From a virus (Duplodnaviria > Caudoviricetes): 41,314 bases of DNA. Of this stretch, positions 1,541 through 41,314 are shown piece after piece. Numbering within the stretch: position 1 is the first letter of the stretch; the number at the start of each line of letters is the position of its first letter. The position numbers were made by a program, and so were the translations under genes. A model generated the notes under the pieces. That model was given only the letters and a program-made list of their open reading frames with translations, ran no database searches and had not been told where the DNA came from. The DNA lies in the IMG/VR virus record IMGVR_UViG_3300049182_000023, positions 1 through 41,314 of that record. The stretch is one strand, 5' to 3'.

Positions 1541-1544
1541 CGAT

Positions 1545-4334: not shown

Positions 4335-4338
4335 TGCT

Positions 4339-10431: not shown

Positions 10432-10713
10432 CTACCCAGTTGCGGCAAGTTTCGCGGAAGCGGCCTTCCCTTCTATTGCCGAATTTCGCCAGTTGCGCAC
10501 TGTGCGCTCGCTCACGTCCCACTGACGCGCCAAGTCTGCCGTCCTGTTTCTCAGGTCAAGCAACAACTGCACACGGCGGTTATCGGCGATGCTCTGCACG
10601 GCCTTAAACTCCACCGTGTCCATGCACTGTTCCATCAGCTTGCGTGAAGCCCCCGCCTCCACAAGCTCATCGATGGCTCGCTGCACAATCTCGCTAACTC
10701 GCGTGTAGCTCAT
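10432..10713 (-). CDS. HTH DNA-binding protein; ends in TAG
   Basis: TADLARQWDVSERTVRNWR HTH; ATG 10713. Confidence 0.65.
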   Translation of the reverse strand: MSYTRVSEIVQRAIDELVEAGASRKLMEQCMDTVEFKAVQSIADNRRVQLLLDLRNRTADLARQWDVSERTVRNWRNSAIEGKAASAKLAATG

Positions 10714-10721
10714 AACGCCCC

Positions 10722-16108: not shown

Positions 16109-16189
16109 TCAAGTTTTTCGTAAACGGTTCGCAAACGAGCGATCCCGTTACGCTTTCCGTCTCACCTTTTGACGAAGCCTTCACCCACT

Positions 16190-16504
16190 ATGTCAATCGT
16201 CGCCCCCAAGCTCAGGGCCGCCCTAGAAAGGGCTGGCATCACAGCGCGTGACCTGGCGGGCAGAATCGATATGGACGAGTCCACAGTGAGCTTGTGGCTG
16301 TCCGGGGGGAGGACGCCACGCATGAAGAACTTGCAAAAGGTCGCCGATGCTCTGGGCATTGAGCTAGCTACGCTCTGGGCGGGACCAGAGGCGACACCGG
16401 CCACAGAAGTACAGGCCGCGATGATTGACGAAATGGGGCAGTTGTCCCCAGCCCAGCAGGAGGCTTTGCTGGCTATCGCAAGGACCATGAGGACGCCCAC
16501 CTAA
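16190..16504 (+). CDS. cI: CI-like XRE repressor without S24 peptidase domain
   Basis: GITARDLAGRIDMDESTVSLWLSGGRTP HTH; about 104 aa. Confidence 0.75.
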   Translation: MSIVAPKLRAALERAGITARDLAGRIDMDESTVSLWLSGGRTPRMKNLQKVADALGIELATLWAGPEATPATEVQAAMIDEMGQLSPAQQEALLAIARTMRTPT

Positions 16505-24326: not shown

Positions 24327-24661
24327 GCGCTGCCGAGAAACTGCCGGAGATGTATACCGAGGACGAGGCGGCGGCTTATTTCAAGAAGTCCGTCATCACC
24401 CTACGACGCTGGCGCAAAGCTGGGTTGATTGGCAGCAAGAAAATCGGCCGCGATGTTTTCTTCACCGCAGAACATATCCGCGCCTACCTGGAGTCCGTTG
24501 AATGTCCCGCATCGTCTACCGCATCACCGACGAGTACGCCATCGTTGAACGAAAGGGGTCCGCGAACCTCTACCTTGAGTGGCGGGAGAAAGGACAGAAG
24601 GTCGGGCGCTCTACGGGCAGTAGCAGCCTTGACGACGCCAAGCGACGCGCACGAGAACTAA
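24323..24661 (+). CDS. xis: Excisionase-like HTH protein
   Basis: YTEDEAAAYFKKSVITLRRWRKAG...KIGRDVFF; overlaps the integrase start. Confidence 0.7.
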   Translation: MSAAEKLPEMYTEDEAAAYFKKSVITLRRWRKAGLIGSKKIGRDVFFTAEHIRAYLESVECPASSTASPTSTPSLNERGPRTSTLSGGRKDRRSGALRAVAALTTPSDAHEN

Positions 24662-25704
24662 TCCTTGAGCTGGCCGAGATCAAGGACGCGGAGCCTGCGG
24701 AAGCGGGCCTGCTGGCGATCCTTGAGCGGTACTACCTGAAACGGGGGAAGACGCTCCCGAGCGCATCCACGGCGAAGCGGTCGCTTGCTCTGTGGAAGGA
24801 ACACTGGGGCGATGAAAAGACCGTCGCAGACCTGACTGTGAAGGCACTGGAAGCCTTCATCGAATGGTTGCGAGGCAAGGGATATGCAGACGGCTACGTG
24901 CGCCGCGTCGTGGGATTCGGACGCACGGCCACGAACTGGGCCTGGAAGCAAGGCGAGCTGCGGCAGGTGCCCTTCATCGAACTACCGCAGGGTGGCGAGT
25001 CCTACCCGCACAAGGCGACGCGCCAGCAGTTGGTAATGCTGCTCAACACGCCGCTGCCTGAGCACGTTTGGACCTACATCCTGATCCGACTGAACACAGG
25101 TTGCCGTGGCGATGCCGCGCTGGACCTTCAGCCTTTCCAAGTCGATTGGGAGGACAACGCCATCAGGCTCAACCCAGCAGGCCGCAGGCAGACCAAGAAG
25201 CGTCGCCCCGTGGTGCCGCTGACCAAGACGCTCGCCGCCCACCTGAAGACGCTACAAGGCGTGGAGTACTACGCCGGGTGGCATGGCAAGCGCACCCGTT
25301 CGCTAAAGACAACGTGGCGGAAGATCCGGACGAAGGCGAAGCTCCCGGCATGGTTCGCCCCGAAGGTGCTGCGACACACAGTGGCTTCAGAGCTGCGCAG
25401 GCGCGGCGTCCCGAAATGGGACGTGGCTGGCTTGCTCGGGCACGAGGAGCACTCTGCATCGGCCACTACGGGCGACTACGCAAAGTTCGACGGAGAGAAG
25501 GTACGTAAGGCGCTGGACGCCTGGATGGGCGACTTGGCGAAGGAGGTTCCGGCCCTAGTCGGGGTCACCTCGGGGTCAGTCAGGCGCACAAAGAAAAACG
25601 GCGCAACCCCTGAGAGCCGCGCCGTTCCTAGTTTACAAGTGGTGGGCGGTACAGGGTTCGAACCTGTGACCCCTACCATGTCAAGGTCACGGAAGATCAA
25701 GTGA
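24502..25704 (+). CDS. int: Tyrosine integrase
   Basis: TGCRG (R), KVLRHT, LLGH and TTGDYA (Y) catalytic motifs; 400 aa. Confidence 0.93.
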   Translation: MSRIVYRITDEYAIVERKGSANLYLEWREKGQKVGRSTGSSSLDDAKRRARELILELAEIKDAEPAEAGLLAILERYYLKRGKTLPSASTAKRSLALWKEHWGDEKTVADLTVKALEAFIEWLRGKGYADGYVRRVVGFGRTATNWAWKQGELRQVPFIELPQGGESYPHKATRQQLVMLLNTPLPEHVWTYILIRLNTGCRGDAALDLQPFQVDWEDNAIRLNPAGRRQTKKRRPVVPLTKTLAAHLKTLQGVEYYAGWHGKRTRSLKTTWRKIRTKAKLPAWFAPKVLRHTVASELRRRGVPKWDVAGLLGHEEHSASATTGDYAKFDGEKVRKALDAWMGDLAKEVPALVGVTSGSVRRTKKNGATPESRAVPSLQVVGGTGFEPVTPTMSRSRKIK

Positions 25705-26126: not shown

Positions 26127-26531
26127 TTACGGCAGGACGCGGGCTGTGAAATCCACCGTCGCCGAATCGATGACCGTAGTGGTCGCTGCTACGCGGATCT
26201 CCACCAGCATGCTTGCCGAGGTCGTACCGGCCGCGTCGTCAGTGCGCGTGACATTCCATGAGCGCGACGTGGACAGGCTGAGCCACGATCCCACGGTGCC
26301 GCTGGTCAGCGCTCCGGAGTTCAGCGTGGCGCGCACTTCGTAGTCGGCTACGGTCCCCGTTACCAGCCACGTCCCGCTCGCAACGCCAGTGGCCTGCTCC
26401 GCGCCCGTGTTGGTCAGCGTGTACGTTGCTGATGCATTGGCCGGGGTGAGAACGGAGTGGGTCGGGTCAAGGCCCTGCAAGTCCACGGCGAACGCATTGC
26501 CCCCCGCCATCAATCCCAACGCACCAGCCAT
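26127..26531 (-). CDS. Tail fibre-associated protein (134 aa, no TAG)
   Basis: TGATG-coupled to the tail fibre; Thr/Ser/Gly-rich, beta-type composition. Confidence 0.65.
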   Translation of the reverse strand: MAGALGLMAGGNAFAVDLQGLDPTHSVLTPANASATYTLTNTGAEQATGVASGTWLVTGTVADYEVRATLNSGALTSGTVGSWLSLSTSRSWNVTRTDDAAGTTSASMLVEIRVAATTTVIDSATVDFTARVLP

Positions 26532-27538
26532 CAGGTCACCCCGGGGCCGGACACCAGCCATACGTCCGTGCCGGTCTTGTAGATCGTTGCGTAGCTGTTC
26601 TGCGTCATCGAGCGATTGCCCGATGTGCCGCTGCCTGCGAGGCGAAGCGAAACGCCCGCACCCTGCGCGATGGTGGCCGAGCCGCCGCCGCCCGTGGCTG
26701 CGACCAGAATCGTTCCGATGGGAAAGGCAACCGAGCTGTTAGGCGGAACCGTGAAGGTGACGCCCGCCGCGTTGGCGAGATAGCCCTTGCCCGAGTCGGC
26801 CAGGACGTAGGTCGTGCTGCCCGAAGTCGTCAGCGGAACGCCACGGAAGCCGACGAGTTGCCCCGTCATCGTGATATCGCCAACAGTGGTCAACGCGCCC
26901 GCCGTGCTGAGCGTCATTGTGTTGGTCGCGCCGGAGTACCAGTTGTGCGCTCCGGTGATACTGGCGACGTGGTTGAAGCTGTTGGTGGTGACCGAGAAGC
27001 CGTAGGTCGTGCTGAAGATCGAGACGTGACCGGTGAGGTCGGTGGGCGATGCAGCGATGACCGAGCCGAAGTTGATGCCGCCTGTGAACGACTCGCCCGC
27101 CTTGTTCGCGGCCGTGTAGCCCAGCTATGCCTTCGCCGAACAGACCAGCACCCACGTACCTGAGCCGGTGCAGCGGAACGTCATAACGTCTCCGGCTGCC
27201 GTGGTGATGTTGGCCGCGCCGGGAAGGACGATGCTCGCGCTGTGTGTCAGCGTGCAGACGCCAGCGAAGCGCACCTCACGGAAACAGCCATTAAAGCCCG
27301 TGCCGAGGCTGGTAATGGTCGCCGCGCCCGTAACCTGCACGGACTCCGCGTCGGATGTGGCAATAGCCGTGGTGGACGCTGCCGCAATGGTGGAACTGGA
27401 GAGCGCGTAGGTGCTGCGGAGAATCGCCTACGTGGCGCGCAGGTAGTTGTCTAGGCTGTTGCTGATGGCCTCAGTGCCCGCAGGCGAGTTGCTGCCTGCC
27501 GTGGCCGAGAGGTCCGACATGGTGCTGGGTACGGGCAT
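26531..27538 (-). CDS. Tail fibre, 335 aa with TAG at 27428-27430 and 27125-27127
   Basis: MPVPSTMSDLSATAGSNSPAG...LDNYLRAT*AILRS...CSAKA*LGYTAANKAG... joins ORFs 27125..27340 and 26531..26917 in one frame. Confidence 0.85.
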
Positions 27539-27541
27539 GGG

Positions 27542-29443
27542 TTAGTCCACGTAAGGAAGGAGGAAGGCAGGCATTGCGTACTGACCCAGCAGGCCACCGT
27601 TCTACCTGCGCGCAAGGTCGCGTTGGTACGCTTCGATGGCATCTGCGGCGAGGGGTGCGCTTGCGGCTTTCTGCCCCACTTTGCGTACAACTGCGTTGTT
27701 GGCCGCGTTCAAACCTTCGGTCGCTAGCAGTCCGAGGCCATAGCCTGGAGCGCCACCGAATGCGCCGCCTGCTACGCCGCCCACCTATCCGATAATGCGC
27801 TGCACAAGCGGCGACTGGCCGAGTCCGCGCATGGTGTCCGCAGCGGTGCCGGGGCCTGTGGCTGCGATGGTGTTGTTGGTGACGCTGCGCTTTTGCAGGG
27901 CATCAAGCAGCGCTTCCAACTGCTGCCGGGCCTGCTTGCTCATCTTGAATTTGGCGCGGTCGTCCTTCGACAGGATCGACTTGATCTGCGTCAGGCTAAC
28001 AGCTTGATTGCCGCCAGCGTCCCGCCCACCACTATCAATTGCACCAAGAAGGGAGCGACCCGTCGCCATGTCTGTAAGAGGCTGCGACGCACGAGCATAC
28101 GCGGCCAAATTAGCGCGATAGCCCGGTACTGTGGCGTCGAGCGTGTCAGCAATCGTATCCCGGAGAGGTCCAAGCGCTGCCTTCTCTTGTGCGGATGCCA
28201 TCGGGCCTAGGTGGCTGCCCGCGTTCTCGTGCAGGCCACTTAGCACGTCCGCTTCGATCTTACCATCCGGGCCGATTCGGGACTGAATTTCATTGCGAAG
28301 ACTGGTGGCTGCGCTCTTGATATTCGGACGGACACCGAGGCTTGAATTGTTAAGGCCATCCAGTGCAGCAAGGATCCCGGACGGGTCGGCGCGCTGGCCC
28401 TGAAGCTGCTGGTAGTACGGCTCTGTTGCGGCCTTTCGCGCTGCCCTAGCCGCCGCAATATCCGCGTCCGTTCCAGCCAGCCGTTCAACCTCGCCACGCA
28501 GCGCCGCATTGTTGGCCGATTCCACTTCAGCGAAGGCAGGAGCCGTCAGTCCGTTATTGCGGAGCATGCGTTCTGCCTGCACCGCCTCCGGAGTCGCCAG
28601 CGCTTGCGCCGGAGTAAGGCTGTAGCCGGGGATGCCCGTCTGCGTGCGCAACGCCTGCAACGTGACGGGATCACTGCCCAACATCTTCGCTACGCGCTTG
28701 TTGGCGATCATCTCGCGGCCGCCGGGAGTGACGTAGCGAGACGCCTCCCGAAGGCCGCCAGCGCCCGCAGAAACGCCGCGCAGGCCAGCGGCAATGGCAG
28801 GAGCGGCGATTGCTCCGGTCGCGAGCTGCTGCGCCTTCTGTGCGCCGTAGCTGCCATCTCCAAGCACGGGCTGCGTCGCGCCCATGACAGCGCCTTCAGC
28901 AGCGAGCAGCCCGCCCTTCTTAGCCGCGCCCTTTAGGCCGCCTTGCGTGATCTTCGGCAGCGCACCCGCAGCACGCAGTTCGCCCAAGCCCACCATCCAC
29001 GGCAACACCTCACCGGGCACCGCGCCGATGTAGGAGCCGATGTTTCCGGCGGTGCGCGCCTGGTAGTCCTGTTCGCGCTGACGCATTGCTGCATCGTCCT
29101 GCGCGATGGTGTCCTGACTCAGCAGCCCAATCTTGCCGAGCCCGTGTTCGACCAACTGCGCGGCACCGTGAATCGGATTCAACGCGTGATGCTGGAACGC
29201 ATCGAGCATGCCGCCGATCTGCGTGGAAACGCCCGGAATGCCGCTGAGGTTGTACGTGGACGCCTGACGCTGGGCAGGCTTGCCCGTGATCATTTGGGCG
29301 AAGGCACTGTCGTTGGCCTAAGACCGAGACGTGGACGACCCGCCGGTTACGTTGCTGAAGTCCGGAGCATCAACGGGAACGCCACCAAAGCGTCCGCCGC
29401 GCTTCTTTTCCTGCTCGACAGGGATACCGTTAAAACGGGGCAT
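27542..29443 (-). CDS. Internal virion / DNA ejection protein, 633 aa with TAG at 29318, 27785 and 27602
   Basis: TAATG-coupled ATG 29443; a single frame through three TAGs to TAA at 27542, 3 nt before the tail fibre ATG. Ala/Gly-rich. Confidence 0.82.
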
Positions 29444-31098
29444 TAGGGCTTCCGGTAGGTCTTGCCGTCGTCGGGGTCGATGTACAGCGCGCCACTGGGA
29501 AGGCGTGCGAAATCGGCATCGGTCTGCGGCTTGGCTGGCATCTTGTCGCGGGGGCTGGCTGCCTTTGGTGCATCCAGTTCAACACCCGTAGCTTCTTGAA
29601 TGGCTTCGCGGTTGTAGCCCTGCGCGCTCCACGTCTTGCCCTTGCGCTGCAACCCCTGCTGAATCAACTGCGCCTGCTTCGCCAAGTTCTTGCGAACGAC
29701 AGCCGGGGACATATTCGGCGTGATATCCGCTGCCTCAAACGCGGCCTGCTCACCCGCAGTAAGGGACGCGCCGAACAACTCATTGCGCACTTCGTTCTTG
29801 TAGCGGTCGTACTGCTGCCACCACTCCGGCTGGCCTTTCGTAACGCCGGGAGCGCCAAGGCGGCCCAAAAGGTTCTCAACACTTCCGCCAACGCCATTAC
29901 CAGCGAAATCGTCAGTGAACCCGCCAGTCAGTTCCTAAAGATTCGACAGCTTCGCAGCATCCTTCGTGAGGCTGTTCACCGCTCCCAGCGGCAACGGCTT
30001 GCCGCCAGAGGTTGATGCAGCAGACGGGAGACGAATGGTTTGAATCTGGCCCGTTGTCGCATTGCGCTGCGCCACCGTTCCGGGCGGCAATCCTGCGGCA
30101 GCAACTTCTTGCGCGGTGAGCGGAGCCCATTCGGCCTGAGTCTTGGTCGTTACCTTCGGGCGCGTACCAATGCGGGGCTGCATCGCGCCACTCGTGCGCG
30201 ATGGCGGCAGCTCAAGGTGAACGTGATCGCCCTCATCAATCGCCTCAAAGCCACGCTTACGCGCGTCGGCAATAAATGACGGGCGCTGCTGCGGCGGGAT
30301 TACGAAATCAGCCGCCGTGCCACTGAGATGTTGGCTGTTCGGCACGCCACCTACTTCAGCGTTGTGTTGCGGCGTGCGCTGACGGCTGCTGATCTGCGCG
30401 CCAGGATAAGCATTAGCAAGCAGCGAGTAGGTCTGTTGCACCTGATCGGGTGCAGTTGCGCCTTGGTACGCCTGATCCATCACCGCGCCACCAGCGCCAC
30501 CCATCGGGCTCTGCTGCTGCGGCGCAGTTAGCGCCTGCCCGTCGAGGGTGCGCATCTTGCTTGGATCCATCGGGTCAAAAAGCACATCCACTTCACCGCC
30601 CGCGCCGTCGCCAACACGTCCCAACTGCCAGCGGGTTTGCGGATCGATGGCATCGCGAAATGCCTTAGCGCCCTGCGGATCCATTGTGGCGAATTGGCGG
30701 AACTTGGCCTCGTCAATGCCGCCATCCGGCCCCACGAGTTCCTGTTGCAACGCCTCCAAGCGATTATTGCGATCCATGCCCGCGAGCGTGCGACCCATGA
30801 TGGCCTGCTGATAGCGATCGTTACCGCGCTGGCGCGTGCCTTCGTTCATCGCCAGCAACCCGCCCTGCAATCCCTGCGTCAGCCCCTCGCCAAAGTTGCG
30901 CGAGGACTGGATGCCAGCGGCGAGCGATAGCAAGCCCTGCCGAACCATCGCCTTCTTGTCGTTGTCATCGACCGCGAGCAGGCCCTCGCCCTGCGGCATG
31001 AACTTGTCGTACAGGCGCGACTGCCAGTTGCGCTTCTTCGGTTGAGGTTCAATCGCCGGAGCAAACCCGCTGACGGGCATTCCAAAACCAAGATTCAT
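29443..31098 (-). CDS. Internal virion protein with M15-type peptidase domain, 551 aa with TAG at 29935
   Basis: SSRQRTPQHNAEVGGVPNSQHLSGTAADF...DHVHLE. ORFs 29935..31098 and 29443..29868 are in the same frame. Confidence 0.85.
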
Positions 31099-31101
31099 CG
31101 A

Positions 31102-31977
31102 TCAGCCCCACATGCTGGCGAGGATGGCAGCGTAGGTGGCCGCGTTCTGGCCTGCGCTGCGATAGTTCGGGTTAGCGCCCGTCTGCGATGCGGAACCGCC
31201 CTGAATCGCGCCGAGTGCGCCGGTCAGCACGCCCAAGCGATCAGCGTCCCAGTTCTGGTAGTTCTGGAAGTCGTCATAACCCGTGTCGTAAACCTGCTGC
31301 GCGAGGCCCTGTTGCTGCGCGCCGATACCCATGAGCGCCCGTGCATCGTCGTACTTGGCGCTGTTGAGGCCCGGAATCGCACCGAGTGCGCCAAGACTAT
31401 TCGCAGAGTTCTGCGCCCACGCCTGCTGGTTTCGGCCGAGTGCCGATTCGGCAAGCTGCGCCTGACGGTCGTAGTCCTGCGAGCGCATATCGGTGGAGAT
31501 GCGTCCCAACTGACCCGCCAGCGCGTTCTACGAGTCCGCAGCGGCCTCCTGATGGGCGGTGCCACCGTAGGCACCGCCCGCGTTGAACTGCGCAAACAGG
31601 CTCGGCACCGTGGACTTGTTGTAGTTGTTCACCACGTCCGACTGCGCGGCGGAAATCTGCTGGTCCAGGTACTTGTTTGGGCCTGCGTAGGGATTGGTGC
31701 CGCCCTTATAGGCGTTCGTGCCGTTGAGCTGGTTCGTGATGTACTTGTTCGCAGCCGTGTTGAGCGGCTGACCCTGCGCCGCCTGTCGCCGGACCATGTC
31801 AAAGCCGTTGTATTGGTCGTCGCTGAAGTCAGCGATGCGCGGCCCCTGATACTGCTGATAGGGCGTGTTGGCGATGCTATTCGCCTTGTCTAGGGCTGTC
31901 TGGAAGAACGGCACCGACCATGCGGGCGGATCACTCTTCTAGACCGTTGTGGTGTTCTTTCCGCCGCCACTGCTCAT
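31102..31977 (-). CDS. Internal virion / pilot protein, 291 aa with TAG at 31939 and 31528
   Basis: MSSGGGKNTTTV*KSDPPAW...AAADS*NALAG; ATGA-coupled start, TGA stop. Confidence 0.82.
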
Positions 31978-32369
31978 GCCGAGATCTCGTAGGTTGAGGT
32001 AATGAGGGGGAACCGCTTGGCCCAACCCTTTCGGGGAGAGCCAAAGGTGATCTTGAGTGCGTTCATGCGCGCCGCCGTTTCTCGGATCACGCCCAACCCG
32101 GCTTCGATAATGTCTGCGTCGCCCTTGTTGTAGGCGAGCCACACGTGCAGCACCGGAAGCCGCGTGTAGTCGGTCGAACGCTTTTGCAGGACCAGGAAGC
32201 CAGCGAAACCCTGATCGTCCACCGCGACGTGCAATGCGGCCTAGCCGGAGCGGATTTCGTGATACACGTCCTCGGCAATCCAGTCCTCGGCGGGCATCTC
32301 ATCCAAGCCGCTGCGAATGTCGGGCCAGAAGGCGCGCAGGTTGTCGGGGTGAATCAGGACAAGGTTCAT
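31974..32369 (-). CDS. GNAT-fold-like virion assembly protein, 131 aa with TAG at 32241
   Basis: MNLVLIHPDNLRAFW...EIRSG*AALHV...LHVWLAY...SPRKGW. Position matches the gene preceding podovirus ejection proteins. Confidence 0.75.
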
Positions 32370-32677
32370 CAGTTTCCTGTCAGATAGCGCGATTGGACCC
32401 ATGTGCCGGGCGTTCCGGCCACCAAGCACGTCCAGCCCGCGACGATGTACTTGGAGCCCGCGACGCCAGCCTCAGCCGGTGCGCTGTTCTTCACAAAGTC
32501 GCCCACCGCCCATGTGCCCGTCGTCGGTGCTGCCATGCCTGCGTTGTAGCTGGCAACCATCAGTCCTTCGGAGAGCTGGTTTACCTGCTGCGCGGTCTTG
32601 CGATAAAGCGTGTCCAACTGCCGCACAAGATCGGGCAGCGCATCAGCACGCAAATACGGTTCGTCAGGCAGCTTCAT
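32369..32677 (-). CDS. Tail needle-like protein (102 aa, no TAG)
   Basis: N-terminal helix plus APTTGTWAVGDFVKN...GWTCLVAGTPGTW. Confidence 0.6.
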   Translation of the reverse strand: MKLPDEPYLRADALPDLVRQLDTLYRKTAQQVNQLSEGLMVASYNAGMAAPTTGTWAVGDFVKNSAPAEAGVAGSKYIVAGWTCLVAGTPGTWVQSRYLTGN

Positions 32678-34125
32678 GCGCGGCGGCTCCCGGCGGGCGC
32701 CAACTCAACCTCAAGCCCGTCAACAGCCATCGGGCCGGTAAAGTCCATGCGCACGCTATGCCACAGCGCGGATCGGCGGAAATCGAACTTGCCACGGCTC
32801 ACTTCAATGGTCGCGTCCTGCGTCTTGGTGTCGCCCAATTCGCTGCGGTAGAAGTTGGTCGCCGTGGCCGTGGTGGGCGTCTGCCGATAGCGCGCCTTCA
32901 CCTGTTGCAGCGTGGAGAAGTCCGTCATATCGCCGAAGTCGAACGTGGTGAGGGTCGAATCACCGGGTGTTCCGGTCAGCGAGTAGAGAACGCCACCCTG
33001 AAACACGCCGGGGACGGTGCTATCCGCCAGCCAGAACGGCGAGTCATAGGAGATGGCCGGAAGGTCGTCGTAGGTCGCATACAGCGCGCCCAGCCCGTCA
33101 TAGGTGATCTGGCCGGAGCTGTATTGCAATGCGGTCTGGATCGACACGGCCCACTTTCCCCACCGATCGGTGCGGTAGTTGTAGACCAGCGCTGAATCGA
33201 TTTCGCCTGCCACGGACGCCGTGCTGGGGTAGTACCAGTACACAAGGTTCCGCGCAGTGTCGGCCACACCAATGATCTGGTCGCGATAAGTCGAATTGAG
33301 GTCTTCGAAGAACCATTCGCGGATTGGTGCACCGATAGGACGCGGCACCGTGCCGTCGAACACGTAGAAGTCGGACGGGCCCACAAAGAAGTGCTGGGTT
33401 CCCACCACCACTACCGATTCAGCGCCAGAACACCCAATGTCACCGGGGATGCGCTGCCAAGACCAAATGAGCGGCGGCCCAACGTACCGACCGAGATACA
33501 TGGACGTGTTTTTGTAGGCGACCACGTCAGAACCAAGGGCTGCACCTGCGCGAATCGCGCCCGGCGAGTCCAGCAACCGCCCTGCGGCGCACTGCGTGCT
33601 AACCGATGGCGTCCAGTTGGTGTGGTCGCGGATGGCGGAACAGCCCCAGCCATCGGTCTAATCGCCGATGCCCATGCCGTTGATGTTGAGCGCCATCACG
33701 AAGCCCGCAGCGGTCACCAAGACGGAGGCCGTGGGCGCGCCTGCGATATCGGCAAAGCTGCCACCCGCCGATGCAGCGCCAATGGCCTGAGTGCGGTTCG
33801 TGGACAGCACGATATCGCCGAACACTGCAAAGCGAGTGCGATTGGTGCCCGTGTAGTCACCAACACGCGAGCGATCCACCCATGCGCCAGCAGAGGCTTC
33901 GTAGATTTTTGTCGTGGACGCGGCAAACGTGCGCTTGCTGCCACTCAGCAGCTCGGCCACATAGGCGCTGTTGGGCGTCGTGGCTAGCGCGGGATAACCG
34001 GCCGTCACCAACGAGCGAGCGGCCGCCAATCCCTCTGTGCTGGGAACGATGGCGTCGCAATCCGTGAGAATGCCGGGCGTGGCCGGATCAAGGTCGGGGG
34101 CGAAGCCGGAAAGCTCAAGGCGCAT
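32674..34125 (-). CDS. Tail nozzle / DNA stabilisation protein (P22 gp10-like), 483 aa with TAG at 33658
   Basis: ...GIGD*TDGWGCSAIRDHTNWTPS... joins ORFs 33658..34125 and 32674..33576; beta-propeller-like sequence. Confidence 0.85.
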
Positions 34126-34723
34126 TGAACGACACCTGGCGCATCTGCGGCGCGTTGCCGTAGCGCGCTGAATCGTCCTCTACGGCCATCCCGTCAAGGA
34201 TCGACTTGAACTGCGCAGACCAGATTAGCGCCCGCGCATCGTCCATGAGGTACGGCGATGCTTCGATCAGCGCGCCATAGAGGTACAGGCCCGGCTCACG
34301 GGTCAGTAGCCAGTTGGTCGTGGCCGAATCTGACAGCGCAGGAACGGCCGTCCAGTAGGTCAGGGCATAGTCTTCCGATCCGCTGCCGCCGATGGTCTTC
34401 AGCACGCCATTGACGATCACGTAACCGCTCGGAAAGCCCGTCGCCAGCGTCTATTCCAGCGCTTCAGGGGCCAGCGGGAACACTTCGTTGTAGGTGCCGC
34501 CATAGGACAGACGAAAGGACTGCACGCCCCTGAAATCATCGGGCAAGGTCAGTTCGTTGGACGACAACGCACCTGTGGTCGTCGTCTGCATCTGCCGTGT
34601 GCGCAGCTCACGATTGATGCGAGCTTCCGCCAGCGCAATGAAGGTCGGAATTTGCGTGGTCAGGTCGGCGCGTGCCAACCAGTCGGCAATGCCCTGCTGG
34701 AGCGTGCTGTAGTCCTGGATCAT
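34115..34723 (-). CDS. Head-tail adaptor, 202 aa with TAG at 34451
   Basis: DYSTLQQGIADWLAR...FIALAEARINRELR and TNWLLTREPGLYLYGALIEA halves lie in one frame. Confidence 0.85.
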
Positions 34724-35016
34724 TCGCCACCACGCCGCGTGCGGCCTTCCCACACACGGAAGCCGGACAGTTCAGGGTCATTGAGCATGCGCCGGAAGTG
34801 CACCGGGTTACTCATCATTTCGTGGTGCGAGATGCCCCACTTCTGCTTGTACAACTCCACTACGGCCGGGTCGAAGCTGGCCGCGTGCTTGAGTTCGCTG
34901 GAGCCCGTGCGGCCCAAGCTGCGAAGCTCTGCCGCGTGGTCAAGAAACACCTACGAGTCAGACGTGCGGCGCTCGATCAGGTCGTCGCCTTCCATCCAGA
35001 GTGCCGTCGTCTTCAC
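34720..35016 (-). CDS. Conserved-type head-module protein, 98 aa with TAG at 34951
   Basis: GTG 35016, MKTTALWMEGDDLIERRTSDS*VFLDH...LNDPELSGFRVWEGR. Confidence 0.7.
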
Positions 35017-35070
35017 CGCTTCACCTTGACTCGGGTTGCGTTGGTATTGGGGAGCGCGAGGTTAGCCATC

Positions 35071-35340
35071 TCAATACACCGCGATCATTAACGTGGCCGT
35101 AGTGCCCGTAGCCTTCACCGCAGACACGCGGAACGGCACGACCGAGCCCGCAGGCATGGTGATCGCCACGTCGGAACCGCCCGCAGAAGGCGTGCACGTC
35201 ACGACACCGGCACCGCCCACGTAGATGGACACCGGAGCTGCAAACACGTTGGCGTCGCTAGGTGTCACCGCCAGCGCAGCCGAGGGAAGAATCGGGCACT
35301 CGCCCACCGAGCCCTAGTTAGGACATGCAATCGTCGCCAT
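35071..35340 (-). CDS. Head spike-base protein (Rcc01079-like), 89 aa with TAG at 35314 (codon 9)
   Basis: GGAGG RBS, ATG 35340; AVTPSD, IYVGGAG and VKATGTTAT motifs. Confidence 0.78.
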
Positions 35341-35349
35341 GAATCCTCC

Positions 35350-35381
35350 AAAAGACGGGGCCAGCCGAAGCCAGCCCCGTC
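35350..35381 (-). terminator. Intrinsic terminator after the capsid gene
   Basis: GACGGGGCTGGC-TTCG-GCTGGCCCCGTC-TTTT. Confidence 0.8.
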
Positions 35382-35388
35382 AGGTTTG

Positions 35389-36324
35389 TTACGTCAGGTC
35401 GCGAGCAACCGCGTGCGCGTCGAGATTGTCCATCTGCAAACCGTACTCATAAGTCAGCAGGTACTTGGACGCATCGCCCGTCTTCGCCAGTTCCTGCGAT
35501 TCCAGCGGACGCAGGGTCTTGAGCGAGACGTGATCGAGGTCGATCAGGTACGCAGCCGCATCGAGGAAGCGCGAGGCCACGACCTTCAGCTCGCCGAAGT
35601 CGCCGACATACACGTCATACGACGCGATCAGCTTGTTGGCTTCGGTCTTCTGGAAGCGGGTGGCGTTGCCGGTGAAGGCCGAGGTGAGCTGCTTGTCAGC
35701 GCCACGAACCAGAACAACGGTCGGGTTGCCACCAGAGGTCCACGCATCCTGCTGCGCATCCTTGAGCAGCGCTTCCGTCCACGCACGAGCCGTGCCCGCA
35801 ACCGGGGCGGTGTTGGTCGAGGGAACCGGGAACACGCCCGCGCCCGCACCCACCGAACCCTGACGGATCCAGCCAGCCAGACCACGGGTCTAGCGAGCTG
35901 TGCCGAGCGCACCCGCGTTGAACGTGGTGTTCTGGCAGAGGGCGACTTCCTGGTCGCGGAGGATTTCCTTCGTCTTCTTCATCTTCTGGAAGGCGATTTC
36001 CGACTTGCGGCCCGCCTTGTCCACGACCTCTTCCGTGTCGGAGATGACGAAGTTCTTGGTGCTGATCTGGGTGTAGTTGCCCCAGCGGGTGGACGGCGAC
36101 ACAGCGGTGAAGCTGGTCACGTCATCACCTTCGATCTGCGCGTTGTTGGCCGCAGTCGCGAGCGAGTCGGTCTACCACTCGAAGAAGCGGGAAGCACACT
36201 TGGACTTCTTGAGCATCGCGGCAAACGGACGCTCGGTCGGCGAAATCATATCGATCACGTCCGACAGGTCTTCACGCATACCGATGGCGGAATACGTGGT
36301 GTAGGTGTTGGTTACGACAGCCAT
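35389..36324 (-). CDS. Major capsid protein (DUF5309/SU10-like), 311 aa with TAG at 36172 and 35890
   Basis: GMREDLSDVIDMISPTERPF...FEW*TDSL...NAQIEGDD...NYTQI...TAR*TRGL...LAKTGD. Confidence 0.92.
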
Positions 36325-36327
36325 TGT

Positions 36328-37293
36328 TTAGGTTCCAGATTTGGCGACCAGATACGCCGCAATATCGTCCTGACTGCGCGTGCGTTGTGCACGCTTGCGC
36401 AGCTCATCGACCTTGCTGACCTGCTGGTCTGGTTTCTGTTGTGCCGCGCCGGGCTTAAGGCCCTTCGTCGGCTCGGGTTTGACTTGCTTGTCTTTCAGCG
36501 TCTTCTGCGCGGCCTGATGCGCTTCCCACTTGGCTGCGTTTCGTGCAACCAGCAGTGCGCGATGGTCGAACAGTTCGGAAAGCTCTTCCTGTGAGTAGCC
36601 CTGTTTGATCAGGAACTCGGCAATCTGGCGCGTTTCGGCCGACTTGACCTTCTCGTCGCGCCATTCGGGGAGCTTTTCTTGCAGCGCCTTCGCTTCACCC
36701 TTGCGCCATTCCGTAACCTCCTGCTCCTGCTCCGCTGTCATGCGGTTGGCAAGCTGCTGGCGTTCTTGGATGGCTGCTTGGTAGTTCGCGTATCGCTGCT
36801 GAAAGGCGGCATTGGCCCGGACCCATTCGGCCGGGTCGGTTTCCGCCAGTTTGGCAAGCTCGGCTTGGTCTCCGATAAGCTGCGTCTGCAAGCTGTGCAG
36901 AACAACGTCAAGGTGGTTGGCGTAATGACTACGCTCCGCCTGCACGCGCTCCACTTCAGCCTGCACAATACGCTTGGCTTCCGCGACCTCTGCCGTCTTT
37001 TTCCGGTAATCGGCATCCTTCATGTATCCGGCTTTTAGCTCGGACTTCTTGACCTTGATCTCGCCAAGATCAATCTCCGGGTCGTCATCCTCGACTTCCT
37101 CGGCGGCAGCTTCCTCTGCCTCTTCTTCGGCTTCCTCGCCCTCGGCCGCTTCCTTCGGCTCCTCTTCCTCTTCTTTCTGCTGCTCGCCCTATTCGGCGCG
37201 GCTCATCAGCAGCGCTAGTGCGGCGTCATCGCCAGTCTCGCCGCCTACTTCTACTTCGGCGAGATCCGGTTCCCCGGTTGTCTCAATGATCAT
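36328..37293 (-). CDS. Scaffolding protein, 321 aa with TAG at 37189
   Basis: GAGG RBS, ATG 37293, acidic N-terminus, ELKAGYMKDADYRKKT and DPAEW motifs. Confidence 0.85.
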
Positions 37294-37317
37294 GTGTTGC
37301 CTCGGTTTTGAGGTCCG

Positions 37318-37644
37318 TTACAGCTTCGGGTTAACCAGCAGGTTCCCGGCACACGTAAGGACGGTGAATTGGTCGCCTTTTACGACAGGACAACCAAAGA
37401 AGGGACGGTGATAGACCTCCGGCCCTGAAAACGGAATCGTGACCCGACCGATATACCCATGCTCGGCCTCGATCTTCAGAAGTATTGGCTCAACCTCTCC
37501 CCAACTCGCTGGGCCAGCGTCATGCGGGCGAACTGCCCCGTCTCCACGACGTGCTGTAGCTGCCCCCTCACCTTGTGCAGGCACTTGAGCGTCAGCCATA
37601 GCTTTTCGCGTGCCTCTTCGTCCCTTGCTGGGCTGTTCCGCCAT
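37318..37644 (-). CDS. Hypothetical protein, partly overprinted on the upstream gene
   Basis: The only ORF covering 37318-37475; start uncertain. Confidence 0.4.
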   Translation of the reverse strand: MAEQPSKGRRGTRKAMADAQVPAQGEGAATARRGDGAVRPHDAGPASWGEVEPILLKIEAEHGYIGRVTIPFSGPEVYHRPFFGCPVVKGDQFTVLTCAGNLLVNPKL

Positions 37645-37757
37645 TCTTGGGTCAACTCCTGTTCGATTAGTTCAAACGCCTCTACGAGCAGCGGATGCGC
37701 CAATAGGGCCTCAGCATCTTTGCCGCGCCGAATGTCCGTCTCTGTTTGGTCGATCAT
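37476..37757 (-). CDS. Small protein downstream of portal (93 aa, no TAG)
   Basis: RRGKDAEALLAHPLLVEAF...WRNSPARDEEAREKLW; ATGA-coupled. Confidence 0.8.
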   Translation of the reverse strand: MIDQTETDIRRGKDAEALLAHPLLVEAFELIEQELTQEWRNSPARDEEAREKLWLTLKCLHKVRGQLQHVVETGQFARMTLAQRVGERLSQYF

Positions 37758-39892
37758 TCGGCGGCACCCGGATCAGGCTGCATTGATGCGCTCACCATCG
37801 ACGCCTGAGCGCTGATCTGGGCGGTCTCAATGGCGGTCTGGTGGGCGATCTGAGCCTTCAGAATCTCCAGCTCCGTCTGCTTCTCAACCTTGAACTGCTC
37901 CAGCGCCATCTCCGACTCGATCTTCATGCGGTCGCGCTCGGCCTGAAGCTGCAATTCCTGCGCCGCCTGTTCCTGTTGCAGGCTCTGCTTCATCTGTTCA
38001 GTCTGCATGTCGGTCTGAGACTTGACCTGAGCCAACTGCGCCTGCGATTGCGCGTTGATTTGTGCCAACTGCTGCGCACCCTGTTGCTTCATCTGCTCCA
38101 ACTGAAGCTCCATCGGCGGCGGATCAGGCTCAGTCTTCGGCTGAGGCGGCGTGAAGAAGTCGGCCGAGTCGCGATAACCCATCGCCTCGCACAGCTTGGA
38201 GAGCGTGTTGTAGATGTTCTGCGGCGTGGCAATGCCGATCTGTGCGGCCTCGCGCTGTGCGTTGCCAATCAGGGTCAGGTTCGCCACCTTCTGCGCCTTG
38301 TCCGCCGCGCCTAGCCCCACCTGCACGCTTACGCGGTAGCTGGTCTTCCACTCGCGCGGATCCATCTGCAACCAGCGGCCGTTCAACTTGATCTGCGCCG
38401 GACGATCCTGGTACTGGCACACCAGCTTCAGCACTAAGCGGTACATGCGCGACAGGCCCGTCTCCGCCAACACGCGGGCGATGAGCTTCTGACGCTGCGC
38501 ACCGGCCTGCATGAGCGATTGCACGCCCTCGCTGCCTACTGCGCCCTTTGCTAGCGACTCAGCGTTGAGCGCGCTATTGGTCTCCGTGACGCCGGTGCGG
38601 GTGTCGCGCACCTGATCGGTGAACTGGATCAGTTCCAGACCGGCCTGCGCTACGAACGGGACCGTTTGCTGGCGAATGGCGTCAGAAGGCGCGCCGGGCT
38701 TGATGCGGATCACGCCACCCGGCTTCGGGTTCAACAGGTCGTCAAGGTTGACCTGTCCTTCCATCACCGCGTTGCGCGGCATATTCGACAGATACACGTT
38801 GTCCAGCACTTGGCGGGTCAGCGCGGTCTTGATCCGCTGCAAGTCCTCGACCAAGTCGTAGAACCCGACGCCAATCACCTTGTAGGGCATCAGGATCGGA
38901 GTGAACAAGGCAAACGGATGGTCGTCTGTTACCTCATTCTCGTGAATGTAGGTGCCCGCCTTGACGATGCGACGGAACTCGGCAATGCCGTCACCGTCCG
39001 TGTCCACGCGGATATAGGCTTCGGTGACCGTGATCTTGCGTTGGGACTTGTCGCCCTCGTCCGAGTCGTCGTCGCCGGAGTCGTCGTAGTCGTGGCGTGC
39101 ATCGCGCTCCGCATCGCCCTCGGCCGTCTCGTCGGACGGGATGAGGTCCACTTCCTTCTTCGGCCAACCCTCGCTGATCAGGTCCGACGCGGTGCGCTGT
39201 ACCTCCTACGCGATGAAGCGCACGTCATCGATGGTGCGGGCGTCCTTGCAGATGCGGATTTCCTCGGGCGGCACGCCTTCGCAGACGTACTTCTCCGTCT
39301 TCTCCTTGCGCTTGACCTTCACATCGAAGGTCTGCCCCAGCTCGGGCGGCATGCCATCCATCATTCCGGAGGGCGGCACCTCGCCGTAGGGCACCTCTTC
39401 CACGATCTCGACTTCCGGATCGTTCTTGAGGATGTCCAGCTCAACCTACGAGACGCCCTGATAGCGCTCTTCCTTCGTCACATACGACTTGTCGCAGTAC
39501 GCCTTGACCACGCCCATGCGCTGGATCAGGCACGACTTGATCGCATCGTGCAGCGTCACGAAGCCGTTGTTGCGCTCGAAGATGACGTGTTCCACATAGC
39601 GTGTGGCGTCGTCTGCGCCCTTCTCGTCGGCCTCGTTGTCCGGCTGGAAGGAGACGATGCCCGCGCCCGTCAGCGCCTCCATGAGGCCCGGCATGGCCCA
39701 TTCCACCGTGTCCATCAGGTCTTTGCTGACGACGCGGCTGCGGCCCTATACGTCAGGCGGGGCTAGCTCGCCCTTTGCCTCGCCGAGGTAGAACTCCATC
39801 GCGCGCTCACGATCCGCCGCAAAGGCGTCGTCCACGCCAATGGAGTTGCGGCGTTCGCGGTCGATCAGCGCGCAGAGTTCGGTGTCACGCAT
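37754..39892 (-). CDS. Portal protein, 712 aa with TAG at 39746, 39446 and 39206
   Basis: MRDTELCALID...APPDV*GRSRVVSKDLMDTVEWAMP...GVS*VELD...RFIA*EVQRT...; Gln-rich C-terminal barrel; single frame to TGA. Confidence 0.92.
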
Positions 39893-39897
39893 GGCGA

Positions 39898-40080
39898 TCA
39901 GGATTCCTTGTCAGCCAGCAAGCGGCGGCCAGCATCGGATACGCGGTAAAGCTCACCACTGCGCTCCGCGTAGCCCTTGCTCACCAGCCCCTCAAACACC
40001 ATTGGCGAGAATGCTTCCATGATCGCTTCGCGTGTCATTACGCGACGTTCGGCGATGTAGTTCAGTGCTTGGTTGATCAT
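39898..40080 (-). CDS. Small winged-helix-like hypothetical protein (60 aa)
   Basis: ATGA overlap with the terL stop; LVSKGYAE...YRVSDAGRRLL. Confidence 0.6.
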   Translation of the reverse strand: MINQALNYIAERRVMTREAIMEAFSPMVFEGLVSKGYAERSGELYRVSDAGRRLLADKES

Positions 40081-41314
40081 GCGACCTTCATATCCGGGTA
40101 TTTCAATGCGGTGCTCCACGTATCGGGTGTGACCGGCTCAGCGAATGTCAGCGCAATCGCGTCCCAACCGTCAGGGCTGGGCACTCCGCGACGGCGCATG
40201 TCTTCCTTCTTCTCCAGCACTAGGCGCGTCTGGCTGTCGTACTTGTAGCCGGGACCACACGCCTCAGCCTGCAACGCATCCTCGTCAGGGACGCTCGCTC
40301 CGGCTGGGTCTTCCAGCCATTCCTTAGACTTCATCCACATCTCAGCGCGGCGGTTGAGCGGGCCAGGAATCTAAGTGCCGTCCTCCGCGTACTTCGGCGG
40401 CTCCAACGGAGCAGCGCCGAAGTTCACAGCGCGGATCACCTTTTCGTAGCCCATCTCCTTGAGGCGGTCGTACACGCCAGCACCAAGCCCGCCCACATCG
40501 ATGAACATGCGTGCAGGCTTCTCGGTGTCGATCACCTGCTTGGCCCAGCCCGCGACCTCCATTGTGTCCTTCTTGAACTTGCGCTCAACCTTCAGCACCT
40601 TGCGTCCGCGCCTGCGCGCCATCGCGCTGCCATCGTCGCCGAAGCGTGACGGATCCAAGCCGATCACCAACGGGCCGGACGGATCGCACTCGGCCTTTCG
40701 GGCTTCGGCCACCAGCGCTGGCTTGATGTAACTGTCATGGCCGCTCATCTGGAACGCCTCTGCCGCCGTGGCGGGGTATTCCTGCTTGAACAGCGCGGCG
40801 TCCTTCAACTCGGCAATCTTGTTGCGTCGCCATGCCATCTACTCAAGGTCCAGCCCATAGATGCGCTGGTACTTTTGTTCCTCTTCGTCCAGCGCGAAGT
40901 CATCCGGCACTTCTTTGCGGTATTCCTCCTGCCAGTACCACGGCACAAAGATCGCAATGAAGTCGCCCACGCCGCGCTCAGCGTCGCTCCACTTCTGGTG
41001 GAAGAAGTTACCAACGCCGTTCGCGGTGCTTTCGAGGATGACTTCAGTGCCGTCCACATCCGGAACGGCCTGCAACACACCAGCTGCGTGCGTCTCCGCA
41101 TGGGGCCAAAACGCCACCTCGGATCCGTGGAACAACTGGATCGTGCTGGATCGGCCCACTCCCTTGGTGCCAGCGGTGCCAACCTTGTATCCGCTGTCGA
41201 TCTTGTCGAAGAAAAGCTCTTTGGCGTTCGCTGCGCCCGTCGATGGGCGAACGAAGACCGGACAATGTTCGTGATACCTGTTCACCATCTCGAACAGGTT
41301 TTGAGTCGCTTGAT
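40077..41314 (-). CDS. terL: Terminase large subunit, C-terminal part; TAG at 40839 and 40371 (whole protein 512 aa, 3 TAGs)
   Basis: FHGSEVAFW (Walker B), ESTANG, LDLE*MAWRR, GLDPSRFGDD nuclease motif, NRRAEMW and SPDGWDA; TGA at 40077. Confidence 0.93.
41188..41314. repeat. Terminal direct repeat (copy of 1-127)
   Basis: Exact duplicate of positions 1-127. Confidence 0.95.

Follow-up and report, generated by a model that had tools for sequence, protein, structure and literature searches.

Phages and prophages using genetic code 15 have been described among the crAss-like and Lak phages and in the temperate Garnet and Topaz clades (bioRxiv 10.1101/2021.08.26.457843; PMC9523058; PMC11210395; parts of each account used here). 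The published temperate cases in the portion of Borges et al. drawn upon are low-GC gut phages (bioRxiv 10.1101/2021.08.26.457843), in line with a statement in the first-pass annotation of the present DNA that TAG-to-Gln phages are known mainly from such a setting. In that portion, low GC was proposed as a route to recoding, regulation of late genes and of the choice between lysis and lysogeny was proposed but could not be tested, and a gain in coding density of >10% was the screen for contigs of 5-100 kb (bioRxiv 10.1101/2021.08.26.457843).

The DNA analysed here (the window, 41,314 nucleotides in all) is the circular 41.2-kb genome of a temperate podophage, and its sequence occurs in soil metagenome runs, with no RNA run among those listed. 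Features apparently common to the window and the code-15 phages, as described in the same portion of Borges et al., are late-gene TAG read as Gln, a TAG-free integrase, a phage suppressor tRNA, a standard-code host, close standard-code relatives and a proposed control of late genes and of lysis versus lysogeny. Judged by GC, host and habitat, the window departs from the profile of the named recoded clades, which are low-GC gut phages of Bacteroidetes and Firmicutes, whereas the window has 61% GC, comes from soil and has Lysobacter kin; the supplementary lists of that paper could hold GC-rich or environmental cases. Its ambers are sparse and 5'-placed, and the crude gain in coding density under code 15 (3.5 points for the curated window genes) lies below the 10% screen. 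Lysis genes are the most recoded ones in the lytic phages of Borges et al. but are TAG-free in the window, including the endolysin (4789..5250, minus strand) upstream of the tRNA; the endolysin carries TAG in 8/19 recoded loci. Unlike in those clades, a recoded prophage is available here in a strain from a culture collection.

Theta ribozymes, which adjoin suppressor tRNAs of phages at their 3' end, have been proposed to control tRNA maturation and the code switch (Kienbeck et al., PMC10879173, in part). In the window, too, a conserved element lies immediately 3' of the suppressor tRNA; unlike theta ribozymes, it is protein-coding, with codon-periodic conservation, no conserved fold or covariation and no Rfam match. 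The HDV-like double pseudoknot was not found at the tRNA 3' end by RNAalifold, in which pseudoknots are not modelled. SecM and TnaC are ribosome arrest peptides. More recent examples are the WPPP arrest peptide (PMC11669330) and PepNL, a mini-hairpin with an arrest that is linked to read-through of a stop codon (PMC11890864). Like arrest peptides, the window element has a variable upstream part and a short, conserved C-terminal segment that contains Trp and Pro, but none of these four is described, in the portions of the accounts used here, as translated across a tRNA gene, and WWP is not an established arrest motif. Amber suppressors made in the laboratory and charged by GlnRS (PMC9976931, PMC6266110, in part) likewise have a CUA anticodon, G73 and a weak 1:72 pair, and a purine after UAG is preferred; unlike these, the suppressors described below are natural and phage-borne, with varied bodies (71-94 nt) at one site.

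Amber codons in the late genes and the residue they encode

The nearest relative of the window phage is an integrated prophage of Lysobacter koreensis. The 48-bp attP core (25640..25687) is identical to the 3' end of the L. koreensis tRNA-Val(GAC), and the tyrosine integrase (24502..25704, plus strand) has no TAG and no counterpart in five relatives. L. koreensis encodes both RF1 and GlnRS, and the host genes flanking its prophage terminate in TAG, as expected of a standard-code host; from the attP core and the kinship, the host of the window phage is probably standard-code too. Neither a release factor (RF1) nor GlnRS is encoded in four phage records checked. Most of the loci read in the recoded group have 54-67% GC, the group has a Lysobacteraceae host, and the earlier description of a GC-rich temperate phage with a probable gammaproteobacterial host holds. 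Recoded relatives analysed numbered 16, the L. koreensis prophage included, and near-duplicate loci were left out of relative counts. In INPHARED the window had no DNA match, the best terminase being at 49% and the best capsid at 46%. A scan of positions 1-11500 for sigma-70 promoters returned no site.

The repressor (16169..16504, plus strand) lies in a lambdoid immunity region. A RusA-like gene and a small HTH gene at the Q position (10432..11120, minus strand) are the only two called genes ending in TAG. A role of such TAG-ended regulators in feedback was considered and is unsupported, since the standard-code prophage G238 shares the TAG ending. Replacement of a Q antiterminator by recoding is not a clean correlation either: a Q-like gene is present in G003 and G146, yet G238 carries the small-protein type that recoded phages have.

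All 25 internal ambers reported earlier are CTA on the plus strand (TAG on the minus strand) and in frame within long ORFs. That inventory stands for its 25 sites; it had missed a 26th in-frame TAG at 1545, the ORF spanning the tRNA (1533..1829) in which it lies, and the 5' placement of the ambers. The following genes are all on the minus strand. Downstream of the tRNA, the Gly-rich first gene (881..1540) has TAG at codons 7 and 85 (a TAG is also present in its L057 homologue), and a 58-aa gene (692..868), for which there are homologues, has TAG at codon 9; the terminase small subunit (400..669, PHROG) has none. The window ends carry a 127-nt terminal repeat, and terL therefore crosses the origin (1..428 and 40077..41314; PHROG): its 512 codons include TAG at codons 72, 259 and 415 (213, 40839 and 40371) and end in TGA, and L057 has CAA at the 213 column. 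TAG is found in the portal (37754..39892; codons 49, 149 and 229), the scaffolding protein (36328..37293; codon 35), the major capsid protein of the SU10_MCP family (35389..36324; codons 51 and 145, both CAG in all 13 closest IMG/VR relatives), a small virion gene (35071..35340; codon 9), a small head-region gene (34720..35016; codon 22) and the virion structural proteins taken as adaptor (34115..34723; codon 91) and nozzle (32674..34125; codon 156). It recurs in a 131-aa late gene (31974..32369; codon 43), whose earlier name, GNAT-like, finds no Pfam or PHROG match, in a DNA ejection protein (31102..31977; codons 13 and 150), in two probable ejection proteins (29443..31098, with a peptidase-like segment and TAG at 29935; 27542..29443, codons 42, 553 and 614) and in a tail fibre or minor tail protein (26531..27538; codons 37 and 138).

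As the first-pass annotation had it, TAG accounts for all interruptions and frameshifts are absent, the same being true in many independent genomes, and every curated late gene closes with TAA or TGA. Translations with TAG as X of the terminase, portal, scaffold, capsid, adaptor, nozzle and first ejection protein align to PHROG families through the TAG positions (portal 3-692 of 712; capsid 1-311), and readthrough gives back full-length genes and an operon structure without fusions. Internal TAG versus Gln codons are 0 versus 256 in 59 early, middle and lysis genes and 22 versus 275 in late genes, to which terL adds nothing (Fisher p 1.6e-6). A contig of run X1, which may be the source of the window, covers 1-5489 and 26400-41314 at depth 83 with zero differences, and among the pieces listed at least 8/26 TAG sites fall within zero-difference contigs (not raw reads) of three other runs, the runs compared being those with a share above 0.20. 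It is thus confirmed that the TAGs are neither an assembly error nor chance.

The residue was examined by pooling 189 unique TAG columns across relatives. Log-likelihood was +147.8 for Q and -56.9 for E, all other residues also being below zero; Q won 2000/2000 bootstraps, and 16/16 control codons returned their own residue. Standard-code homologues alone (167 columns) gave Q +71.0 versus E -23.3, and the 21 window sites gave Q +10.0 with a runner-up at -6.9. Q was the best fit in 20/22 recoded loci; calls from few sites are weak, as for L006, where Ile was best, and L004, L156, L157, L159 and L160, where Q was not best individually. Taken singly, the TAG columns often hold a residue other than Gln in relatives, many being Glu, Asp or His: portal codon 229 is mostly His, and codon 22 of 34720-35016 mostly Glu. 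Family motifs cited in the first-pass annotation had placed TAG at Gln sites; the pooled fit agrees, but the 'TTTVQK' column is mostly Ser/Thr, and other single columns are likewise non-Gln. Together with a CUA tRNA of Gln type, these alignments support the earlier suggestion that TAG is read as Gln.

The suppressor tRNA and the reading frame that runs through it

A tRNA with a CUA anticodon (1628..1702, minus strand; ARAGORN, RF00005), apparently a Gln-type amber suppressor, lies just upstream of the TAG-bearing genes. It has an encoded CCA, unpaired U1:C72, G2-C71, G3-C70 and G73, and matches the RF00005 covariance model end to end at 49.2 bits; the call depends on this model, as MFE folding shows no preference for the cloverleaf (z 0.56). 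It is the sole Rfam match in the region, and a relaxed ARAGORN run gave noise only. The ARAGORN label, Pyl, is taken from the anticodon; the tRNA-Pyl fold is absent, and no PylRS or other synthetase was found among 83 phage proteins with PHROGs. The tRNA is 93% identical to that of the L. koreensis prophage. An unpaired 1:72 and G2-C71 occur in 48/48 tRNAs at this site and G3-C70 in 37/48, and a long variable arm in 8/48; the phages with such an arm still give Q +10.5 versus -1.3 over 16 columns. U35, G73 and a weak 1:72 pair favour GlnRS in the part of that account used (PMC9976931), and the host enzyme likely loads the phage tRNA with glutamine. The CUA tRNA is present in 8/11 recoded loci, the remaining three stopping short of the site, and absent from 5/5 standard-code relatives covering it (G003, G146, G238, G339 and G093), as would be expected if tRNA and internal TAGs go together. 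In samples of 401 family and 401 order genomes searched with exact tRNA and peptide patterns, only G001 matched.

The tRNA is nested in frame within ORF 1533..1829 (minus strand), which belongs to a family conserved in relatives and consists of an N-terminal peptide (GKG..NWD.F), a linker encoded by the tRNA and a conserved C-terminal motif. Its start overlaps the upstream stop, and its stop overlaps the start of 881-1540; the stop is overlapped by the next gene in 29/48 loci only. The C-terminal peptide reads YIDxxTGx-Q/E/TAG-VxExWWP; in the window it is YIDDATGQTVTAEWWP (1554..1601, minus strand), a predicted beta-hairpin followed by WWP. The frame through the tRNA is open in 48/48 resolved loci (L311 and L317, unresolved, stand outside this count), and the spacing from tRNA to motif is always in frame at 8 lengths from 2 to 314 nt. 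TAG lies within the motif in 23/48 loci, comes after it in the window, and is absent from 15/48 of the ORFs; in 63/119 homologues from databases the sequence stops at the amber column. What is new here is a suppressor tRNA nested in frame within an ORF that ends in a conserved peptide.

Tentatively, and at somewhat under even odds, the tRNA-spanning ORF can be seen as a cis-acting control of suppressor supply. One transcript would have two alternative fates, translation through the tRNA or cleavage that frees the tRNA. Ribosomes pausing on the putative hairpin-WWP stall peptide, reached in roughly half of the loci only through a TAG, may set the amount of matured suppressor, and could then be passed on to the first gene of the virion operon.

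The peptide might instead act in trans as a helper of suppression, such as an inhibitor of RF1 or of UAG termination, with its own amber providing positive feedback and a sharp switch. We consider this unlikely, yet worth weighing: the motif accompanies a CUA tRNA in 23/23 viral and 31/32 metagenome pattern matches and in 0/8 standard-code loci, it is kept even in ORFs devoid of TAG, and the phages checked encode no release factor. A diffusible peptide is harder to reconcile with the finding that, in the loci read, no start codon for the motif alone ever lies between it and the tRNA, although the N-terminus and linker vary freely. Moreover, three recoded loci (L096, L097 and L119) are without the motif, and the tRNA-spanning protein has no match in Pfam or PDB. 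INPHARED holds no match to it either, and its AlphaFold model is of low confidence (pLDDT 56.7).

Amber placement and a probable lock on virion genes

TAG placement was counted over genes within 0.7-1.35 of the length of the corresponding window gene and not cut by contig ends, the same limits applying to shuffling; g37476 was kept in the shuffling count, where two probable terminators were counted, and left out of the 5'-placement count. The first TAG of a gene lies at a median of codon 27, and at 0.145 of gene length versus 0.387, whereas later TAGs average 0.51; CAA and GAA have no 5' bias. Genes with at least one TAG number 125/162, versus 94.4 +/- 4.0 after shuffling; the shuffling p-values overstate independence because the 16 phages are kin. 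The first Gln codon of the capsid is TAG in 16/16 phages, at 7 different columns, and the chance of at least one TAG in all 7 capsid lineages is 0.013. A purine follows TAG in 71% of cases versus 59% after CAG, and in the portion of the account used a purine after UAG favours suppression (PMC6266110).

The pattern of TAGs fits a selected lock on virion genes. Some genes are not locked: in the window these are terS and five small late genes, the portal is listed among them at 12/15, and the called terminase ORF is TAG-free in L001, L124, L004, L130 and L096. An even spread of TAGs would also be expected if selection merely caps their number per gene.

Tolerated drift after gain of the suppressor, whose first use might have been the reading of anti-defence or host signals, would likewise leave TAG read as Gln via the phage tRNA, with no selected gating. 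TAG positions do differ freely among relatives, the load varies from a sparse 2% to 14% of Gln codons across phages, early stops are less wasteful, and the standard-code sisters manage without the system. We nevertheless find this account improbable, as capsid and scaffold, the genes expected to be worst hit by incomplete suppression, each carry TAG in 16/16 phages, the capsid TAG shifting among seven columns yet never being lost; the 5' bias is limited to the first TAG; and the 59 non-late genes are TAG-free.

It is more doubtful still that the ORF is a shadow or passenger, left where a tRNA landed in a common small gene, with the downstream conservation reflecting a signal in DNA or RNA, or a remnant kept by hitchhiking. 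The N-terminal peptide is indeed a common stand-alone phage gene (120 of about 960 loci were examined with ARAGORN, and 0 had a CUA tRNA), chance open frames through tRNA genes are common, and gene callers often call such ORFs. Against this, entropy at the third codon position (1.27) is double that at the first two (0.63, 0.64), differences in the family are 494 synonymous versus 181 non-synonymous, motif substitutions are W-to-Y/F and Q/E/TAG exchanges, and inserts, be it a second tRNA (L156, L160) or a long domain (P0138), preserve the frame. Nor did 17 trailers 3' of the tRNA yield a conserved RNA structure, with 3 invariant pairs and no covariation by RNAalifold. Lastly, nonsense mutations of a decaying prophage, assembly errors, another residue (Glu, Tyr, Ser, Leu, Lys or Pyl) or a recoded host can practically be dismissed, for the Pyl label, the many Glu, Asp or His columns and the long variable arms are outweighed by TAG-only interruptions in many independent genomes, agreeing contigs of other runs, negative scores for every non-Q residue, a standard cloverleaf, and a host with RF1 and TAG-ended genes.

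The preferred reading, an amber lock on virion genes together with a glutamine suppressor tRNA, is given a probability of roughly 0.7; the regulatory role of the tRNA-spanning ORF, taken by itself, is less certain, as said above. The tRNA, which probably receives its glutamine from the synthetase of the host, would compete at TAG with the host's RF1. Complete virion proteins would be made only after the late tRNA accumulates, so that particle assembly would be gated, and leaky late transcripts in the lysogen or early infection would yield short peptides only. Nonsense polarity lowers downstream mRNA. Polarity at the early TAGs may thereby trim downstream late mRNA too.

Implications for phage recoding

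What leads phages to reassign stop codons, and what sets off the switch, are open questions, and most recoded phages are uncultured. One early, moving-yet-kept amber per key gene would be direct sequence evidence for a selected lock. The arrangement may further be a portable code-switch cassette of GC-rich Lysobacteraceae phages, in which the amber of the ORF nesting the tRNA and the hairpin-WWP sense suppression and control maturation of their own tRNA, each key virion gene has one 5' lock, and the whole has been gained or lost at least 5 times and missed by density screens; this fuller picture is speculative, and we would not put it at even odds. Low GC is not required for recoding. Sparse recoding would escape the usual screen, and environmental recoded phages may therefore be more numerous than counted, with mis-annotated virion genes. 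A recoded prophage resides in Lysobacter koreensis CCUG 55491, a culture-collection strain, and induction, proteomics and codon swaps are therefore ordinary bench work. A tRNA gene that doubles as a conserved coding frame with the codon it reads points to a suppressor-supply control that has not been described before.

TAG codons in the late genes

The window holds a phage genome of 61% GC, circular at 41,187 bp, and a terminal repeat of 127 nt. PHROG and Pfam scans gave a lambdoid gene order: a repressor (16169-16504), genes for replication, nin-like genes, lysis genes followed by a virion operon of podovirus type on the minus strand, and a tyrosine integrase. At its end, the integrase gene overlaps 48 bp that match exactly the 3′ end of Lysobacter koreensis tRNA-Val(GAC); these 48 bp are the likely attP of the phage. 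Three endonuclease genes are present (2054-2641, 3058-3780 and 18229-18921), two of them among the lysis genes. One contig of sequencing run X3 lacks 2067-2645, suggesting that a mobile gene lies there. At 5460-5489, upstream of the lysis genes, the coverage falls from 83 to 68 and several contigs stop, which points to a variable junction. The runs best matching the window are soil metagenomes.

All 25 internal TAG codons listed in the first-pass annotation were confirmed as TAG and in frame. The terL gene, of 512 codons with three TAGs, runs across the origin. A gene caller written for the analysis, in which internal TAG was permitted genome-wide, placed internal TAGs only downstream of the single tRNA gene, except for two plus-strand calls that overlap late genes and look spurious. 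The 59 early, middle and lysis genes contained no internal TAG against 256 Gln codons, whereas the late genes without terL contained 22 against 275 (p 1.6e-6). TAG is used as terminator in two middle genes. Read support for the TAGs was judged from assembled contigs only: a contig from X1, possibly the source run of the window, agrees base for base at a depth of 83 with the origin joined, and 8 of 26 TAG sites also lie within zero-difference contigs from three other runs.

Suppressor tRNA and the residue inserted at TAG

ARAGORN and Rfam detected a single tRNA in the window, at 1628-1702 on the minus strand, with the lysis genes on one side and the first gene to carry TAG on the other. Its anticodon is CUA and its CCA end is encoded. 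Positions 1 and 72 are unpaired, G2 pairs with C71 and G3 with C70, and position 73 is G. A review (PMC9976931) lists U35, the discriminator and the 1-72 and 3-70 pairs as Gln identity elements, and describes insertion of Gln by suppressors with a weakened 1-72 pair. Neither RF1 nor GlnRS is encoded by the phage; L. koreensis has both.

The first-pass annotation had read TAG as Gln, and the profile likelihood bears this out: over 189 unique TAG columns Q scored +147.8, E -56.9 and all other residues lower, by a method in which 16 of 16 control codons recovered their own residue. The preference for Q was retained with the window TAGs alone (+10.0 vs -6.9 for the next residue) and with standard-code references, relatives without internal TAG, alone (+71.0 vs -23.3). 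Q was the top-scoring residue in 20 of 22 loci; in a second, smaller gene set, another residue scored best in several phages that had 2-6 sites. The further claim that TAG occupies Gln positions stands for the pooled columns, which favour Gln, but not for each site: many single TAG columns are not Gln in relatives, and therefore TAGs arise also at variable sites. We put the probability that the suppressor is charged with Gln by the host GlnRS at about 0.9.

Suppressor tRNAs of other shapes were also seen among the phage loci compared. Those with a long variable arm occur at the same place in L156, L160, L162, L152, L165, L297, L299 and L300, and the pooled TAG columns of such phages still favour Gln. 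Suppressors of 71-72 nt with a shortened D-arm occur in L004, L007, L093, L096, L148, L151 and L157; as several of these short-D-arm tRNAs escape ARAGORN, the number of suppressor tRNAs is probably underestimated. Several relatives have ordinary tRNAs (Gln-UUG, Trp-CCA, Met, Gly) within their late region (L143:11114-11355, L141:18232-18306, L145:7917-7992, L070:1685-1760), and these are possible sources of suppressor bodies. The unrelated phages L106, L116, L114 and L098 carry two CUA tRNAs in tandem, the second of which, in L106 and L116, is 97 nt long and may hold an insert.

Recoded relatives and placement of TAG

A capsid scan of IMG/VR yielded 56 loci. Internal TAG was found in 11 of the 13 closest (capsids 70-84%) and was absent from the other two and from the remaining 43. 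Eight of the 11 recoded loci have a CUA tRNA, that of L007 being counted on a sub-threshold Rfam match only, and the other three end short of the tRNA site. A genome scan located a prophage in L. koreensis CCUG 55491 (G001:C2, about 576.7-615.4 kb) with a capsid 92% and a tRNA 93% identical to those of the window, and with TAGs in its late genes, among them capsid codons 51 and 155, scaffold codon 33 and portal codon 49. Its integrase lies at one end, and a 14-bp piece of a tRNA-Ser end is repeated at both. TAG terminates 6 of 36 rough calls of flanking host genes, including ORFs of 1039 and 668 codons. The association of tRNA and internal TAGs implied in the first-pass annotation extends to the standard-code relatives: G003, G146, G238, G339 and G093 span the lysis-to-portal junction and have no CUA tRNA, and in L010 this junction is covered only in part. 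Scans with tRNA patterns, which are blind to proteins, brought up more recoded phages, some with capsids at only 36-42%, together with CUA tRNAs of unrelated phages.

On capsid and portal trees the recoding state needs at least five changes, with gain and loss indistinguishable. A single recoded clade was rejected (p-AU 1e-5; 12 vs 6 rows, picked after viewing the larger tree). In one sub-group (L112, L115, L151, L156, L157, L160, L162, L163 and L308) TAG occurs also upstream of the tRNA, in the endolysin and the lysis-region genes next to it. At the lambda-Q position (L065:3350-4054 and L139:8550-9239 among relatives), a small HTH protein is encoded in the window (10432-10713) and three recoded relatives, and a Q-like zinc-finger protein in two standard-code sisters; the standard-code G238 departs from this split.

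Placement of TAG was analysed in 16 de-duplicated phages, whose kinship inflates the p-values. TAG accounts for 2-14% of their Gln codons. The base after the codon is a purine at 71% of TAGs vs 59% of CAGs (21 of 22 for the window TAGs), a context described in PMC6266110 as favouring suppression. TAG is present in the capsid and scaffold genes of 16/16 phages and the adaptor gene of 15/16, and the first Gln codon of the capsid is TAG in all 16, at seven different columns. The first TAG of a gene lies at a median of codon 27 and within 60 codons in 104 of 122 genes. This 5′ bias persists when the first 15 codons are skipped, and CAA and GAA in the same gene set have no such bias; later TAGs lie at a mean of 0.51 of gene length. 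Nonsense codons near the 5′ end are strongly polar. At least one TAG occurs in 125 of 162 genes, vs a shuffled mean of 94.4 and maximum of 110, an even spread that a limit on TAGs per gene would also produce. Gating of the virion genes by the suppressor is the probable reading of these features.

Reading frame across the tRNA and form of the recoding

Reading of its flanks placed the tRNA inside an ORF, 1533-1829 on the minus strand, whose start overlaps the upstream stop and whose stop overlaps the start of the next gene. In the L. koreensis prophage the start of the ORF overlaps the stop of an Rz1-like gene. Upstream of the tRNA the ORF encodes a GKG..NWD.F peptide, a common stand-alone phage gene which is found as such in the standard-code L010 and L145; none of 120 loci examined combined a CUA tRNA with the stand-alone gene. 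The GKG..NWD.IFGK protein (L169-L288) is small, very common in phages (about 960 stretches in IMG/VR) and unannotated, and no family name was found for it. Downstream of the tRNA the ORF encodes the motif YIDxxTGx(Q/E/TAG)VxExWWP. Behind the suppressor, L156 and L160 each have another, ordinary tRNA (Asn or Gln), and the ORF is in frame across both tRNAs.

A DNA pattern written for the motif peptide by itself had 23 matches in viral and 32 in metagenome sequences, with a CUA tRNA upstream in 23/23 and 31/32 respectively (two by eye; one match at a contig end). The tRNA was resolved at 48 of 50 distinct loci, and in all 48 the frame is open through it. Between CCA and motif the spacing takes eight lengths, ranging from 2 to 314 nt, all of which keep the frame (chance (1/3)^7, about 5e-4). 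At 16 loci found without the DNA pattern, the motif being picked there by a peptide expression, third positions are twice as variable as first and second positions, with 494 synonymous vs 181 non-synonymous differences. No conserved RNA structure was found downstream of the tRNA. Of the 48 ORFs, 23 have their TAG within the motif, 3 within the tRNA or spacer, 3 upstream and 4 immediately after the motif; the other 15 have none. The motif is missing from three recoded loci. The ORF is very likely translated. An AlphaFold model of its product, of low confidence, places a hairpin at 76-87. For the ORF we tentatively propose a role in controlling tRNA maturation in cis; action of the product as a helper in trans is a somewhat less likely alternative.

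Databases contain 239 homologues of the ORF product. Among the 119 listed, 63 stop where the amber column lies, 6 further along the motif and 2 right after WWP; WWP is present in 40 and the motif is absent from 8. The full profile search gave 414 matches, some of them N-terminal peptides or shadow ORFs that overlie ordinary tRNAs. The database proteins P0138 and P0235 have long in-frame inserts separating tRNA from motif, that of P0138 presumably resembling an HNH endonuclease, judged by a motif. P0231 and P0214 carry all or part of the WWP motif and no tRNA-like peptide.

Borges et al. describe TAG-recoded prophages, a late-gene model and a low-GC route to recoding, whereas the window phage is GC-rich. 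Their screen applied a rule of more than 10% gain in coding density; reading through TAG in the window gains 3.5 points by a crude count, below that rule. PMC13037316 gives 0-0.65% for recoded jumbo phages outside guts. In mainly open literature, no published amber suppressor tRNA in a Lysobacter prophage was found. Literature on stop codon reassignment in Xanthomonas phages gave one unrelated review only, and by title or abstract start no published case of a tRNA gene nested in an ORF was found.

The TAG codons, their placement, the tRNA, its co-occurrence with them and the conserved frame are observed directly. This is real TAG-to-Gln recoding in a new form, GC-rich, Lysobacteraceae-associated, sparse and 5′-placed, represented also by a culturable prophage, and combined with a conserved protein-coding frame that crosses the suppressor tRNA.
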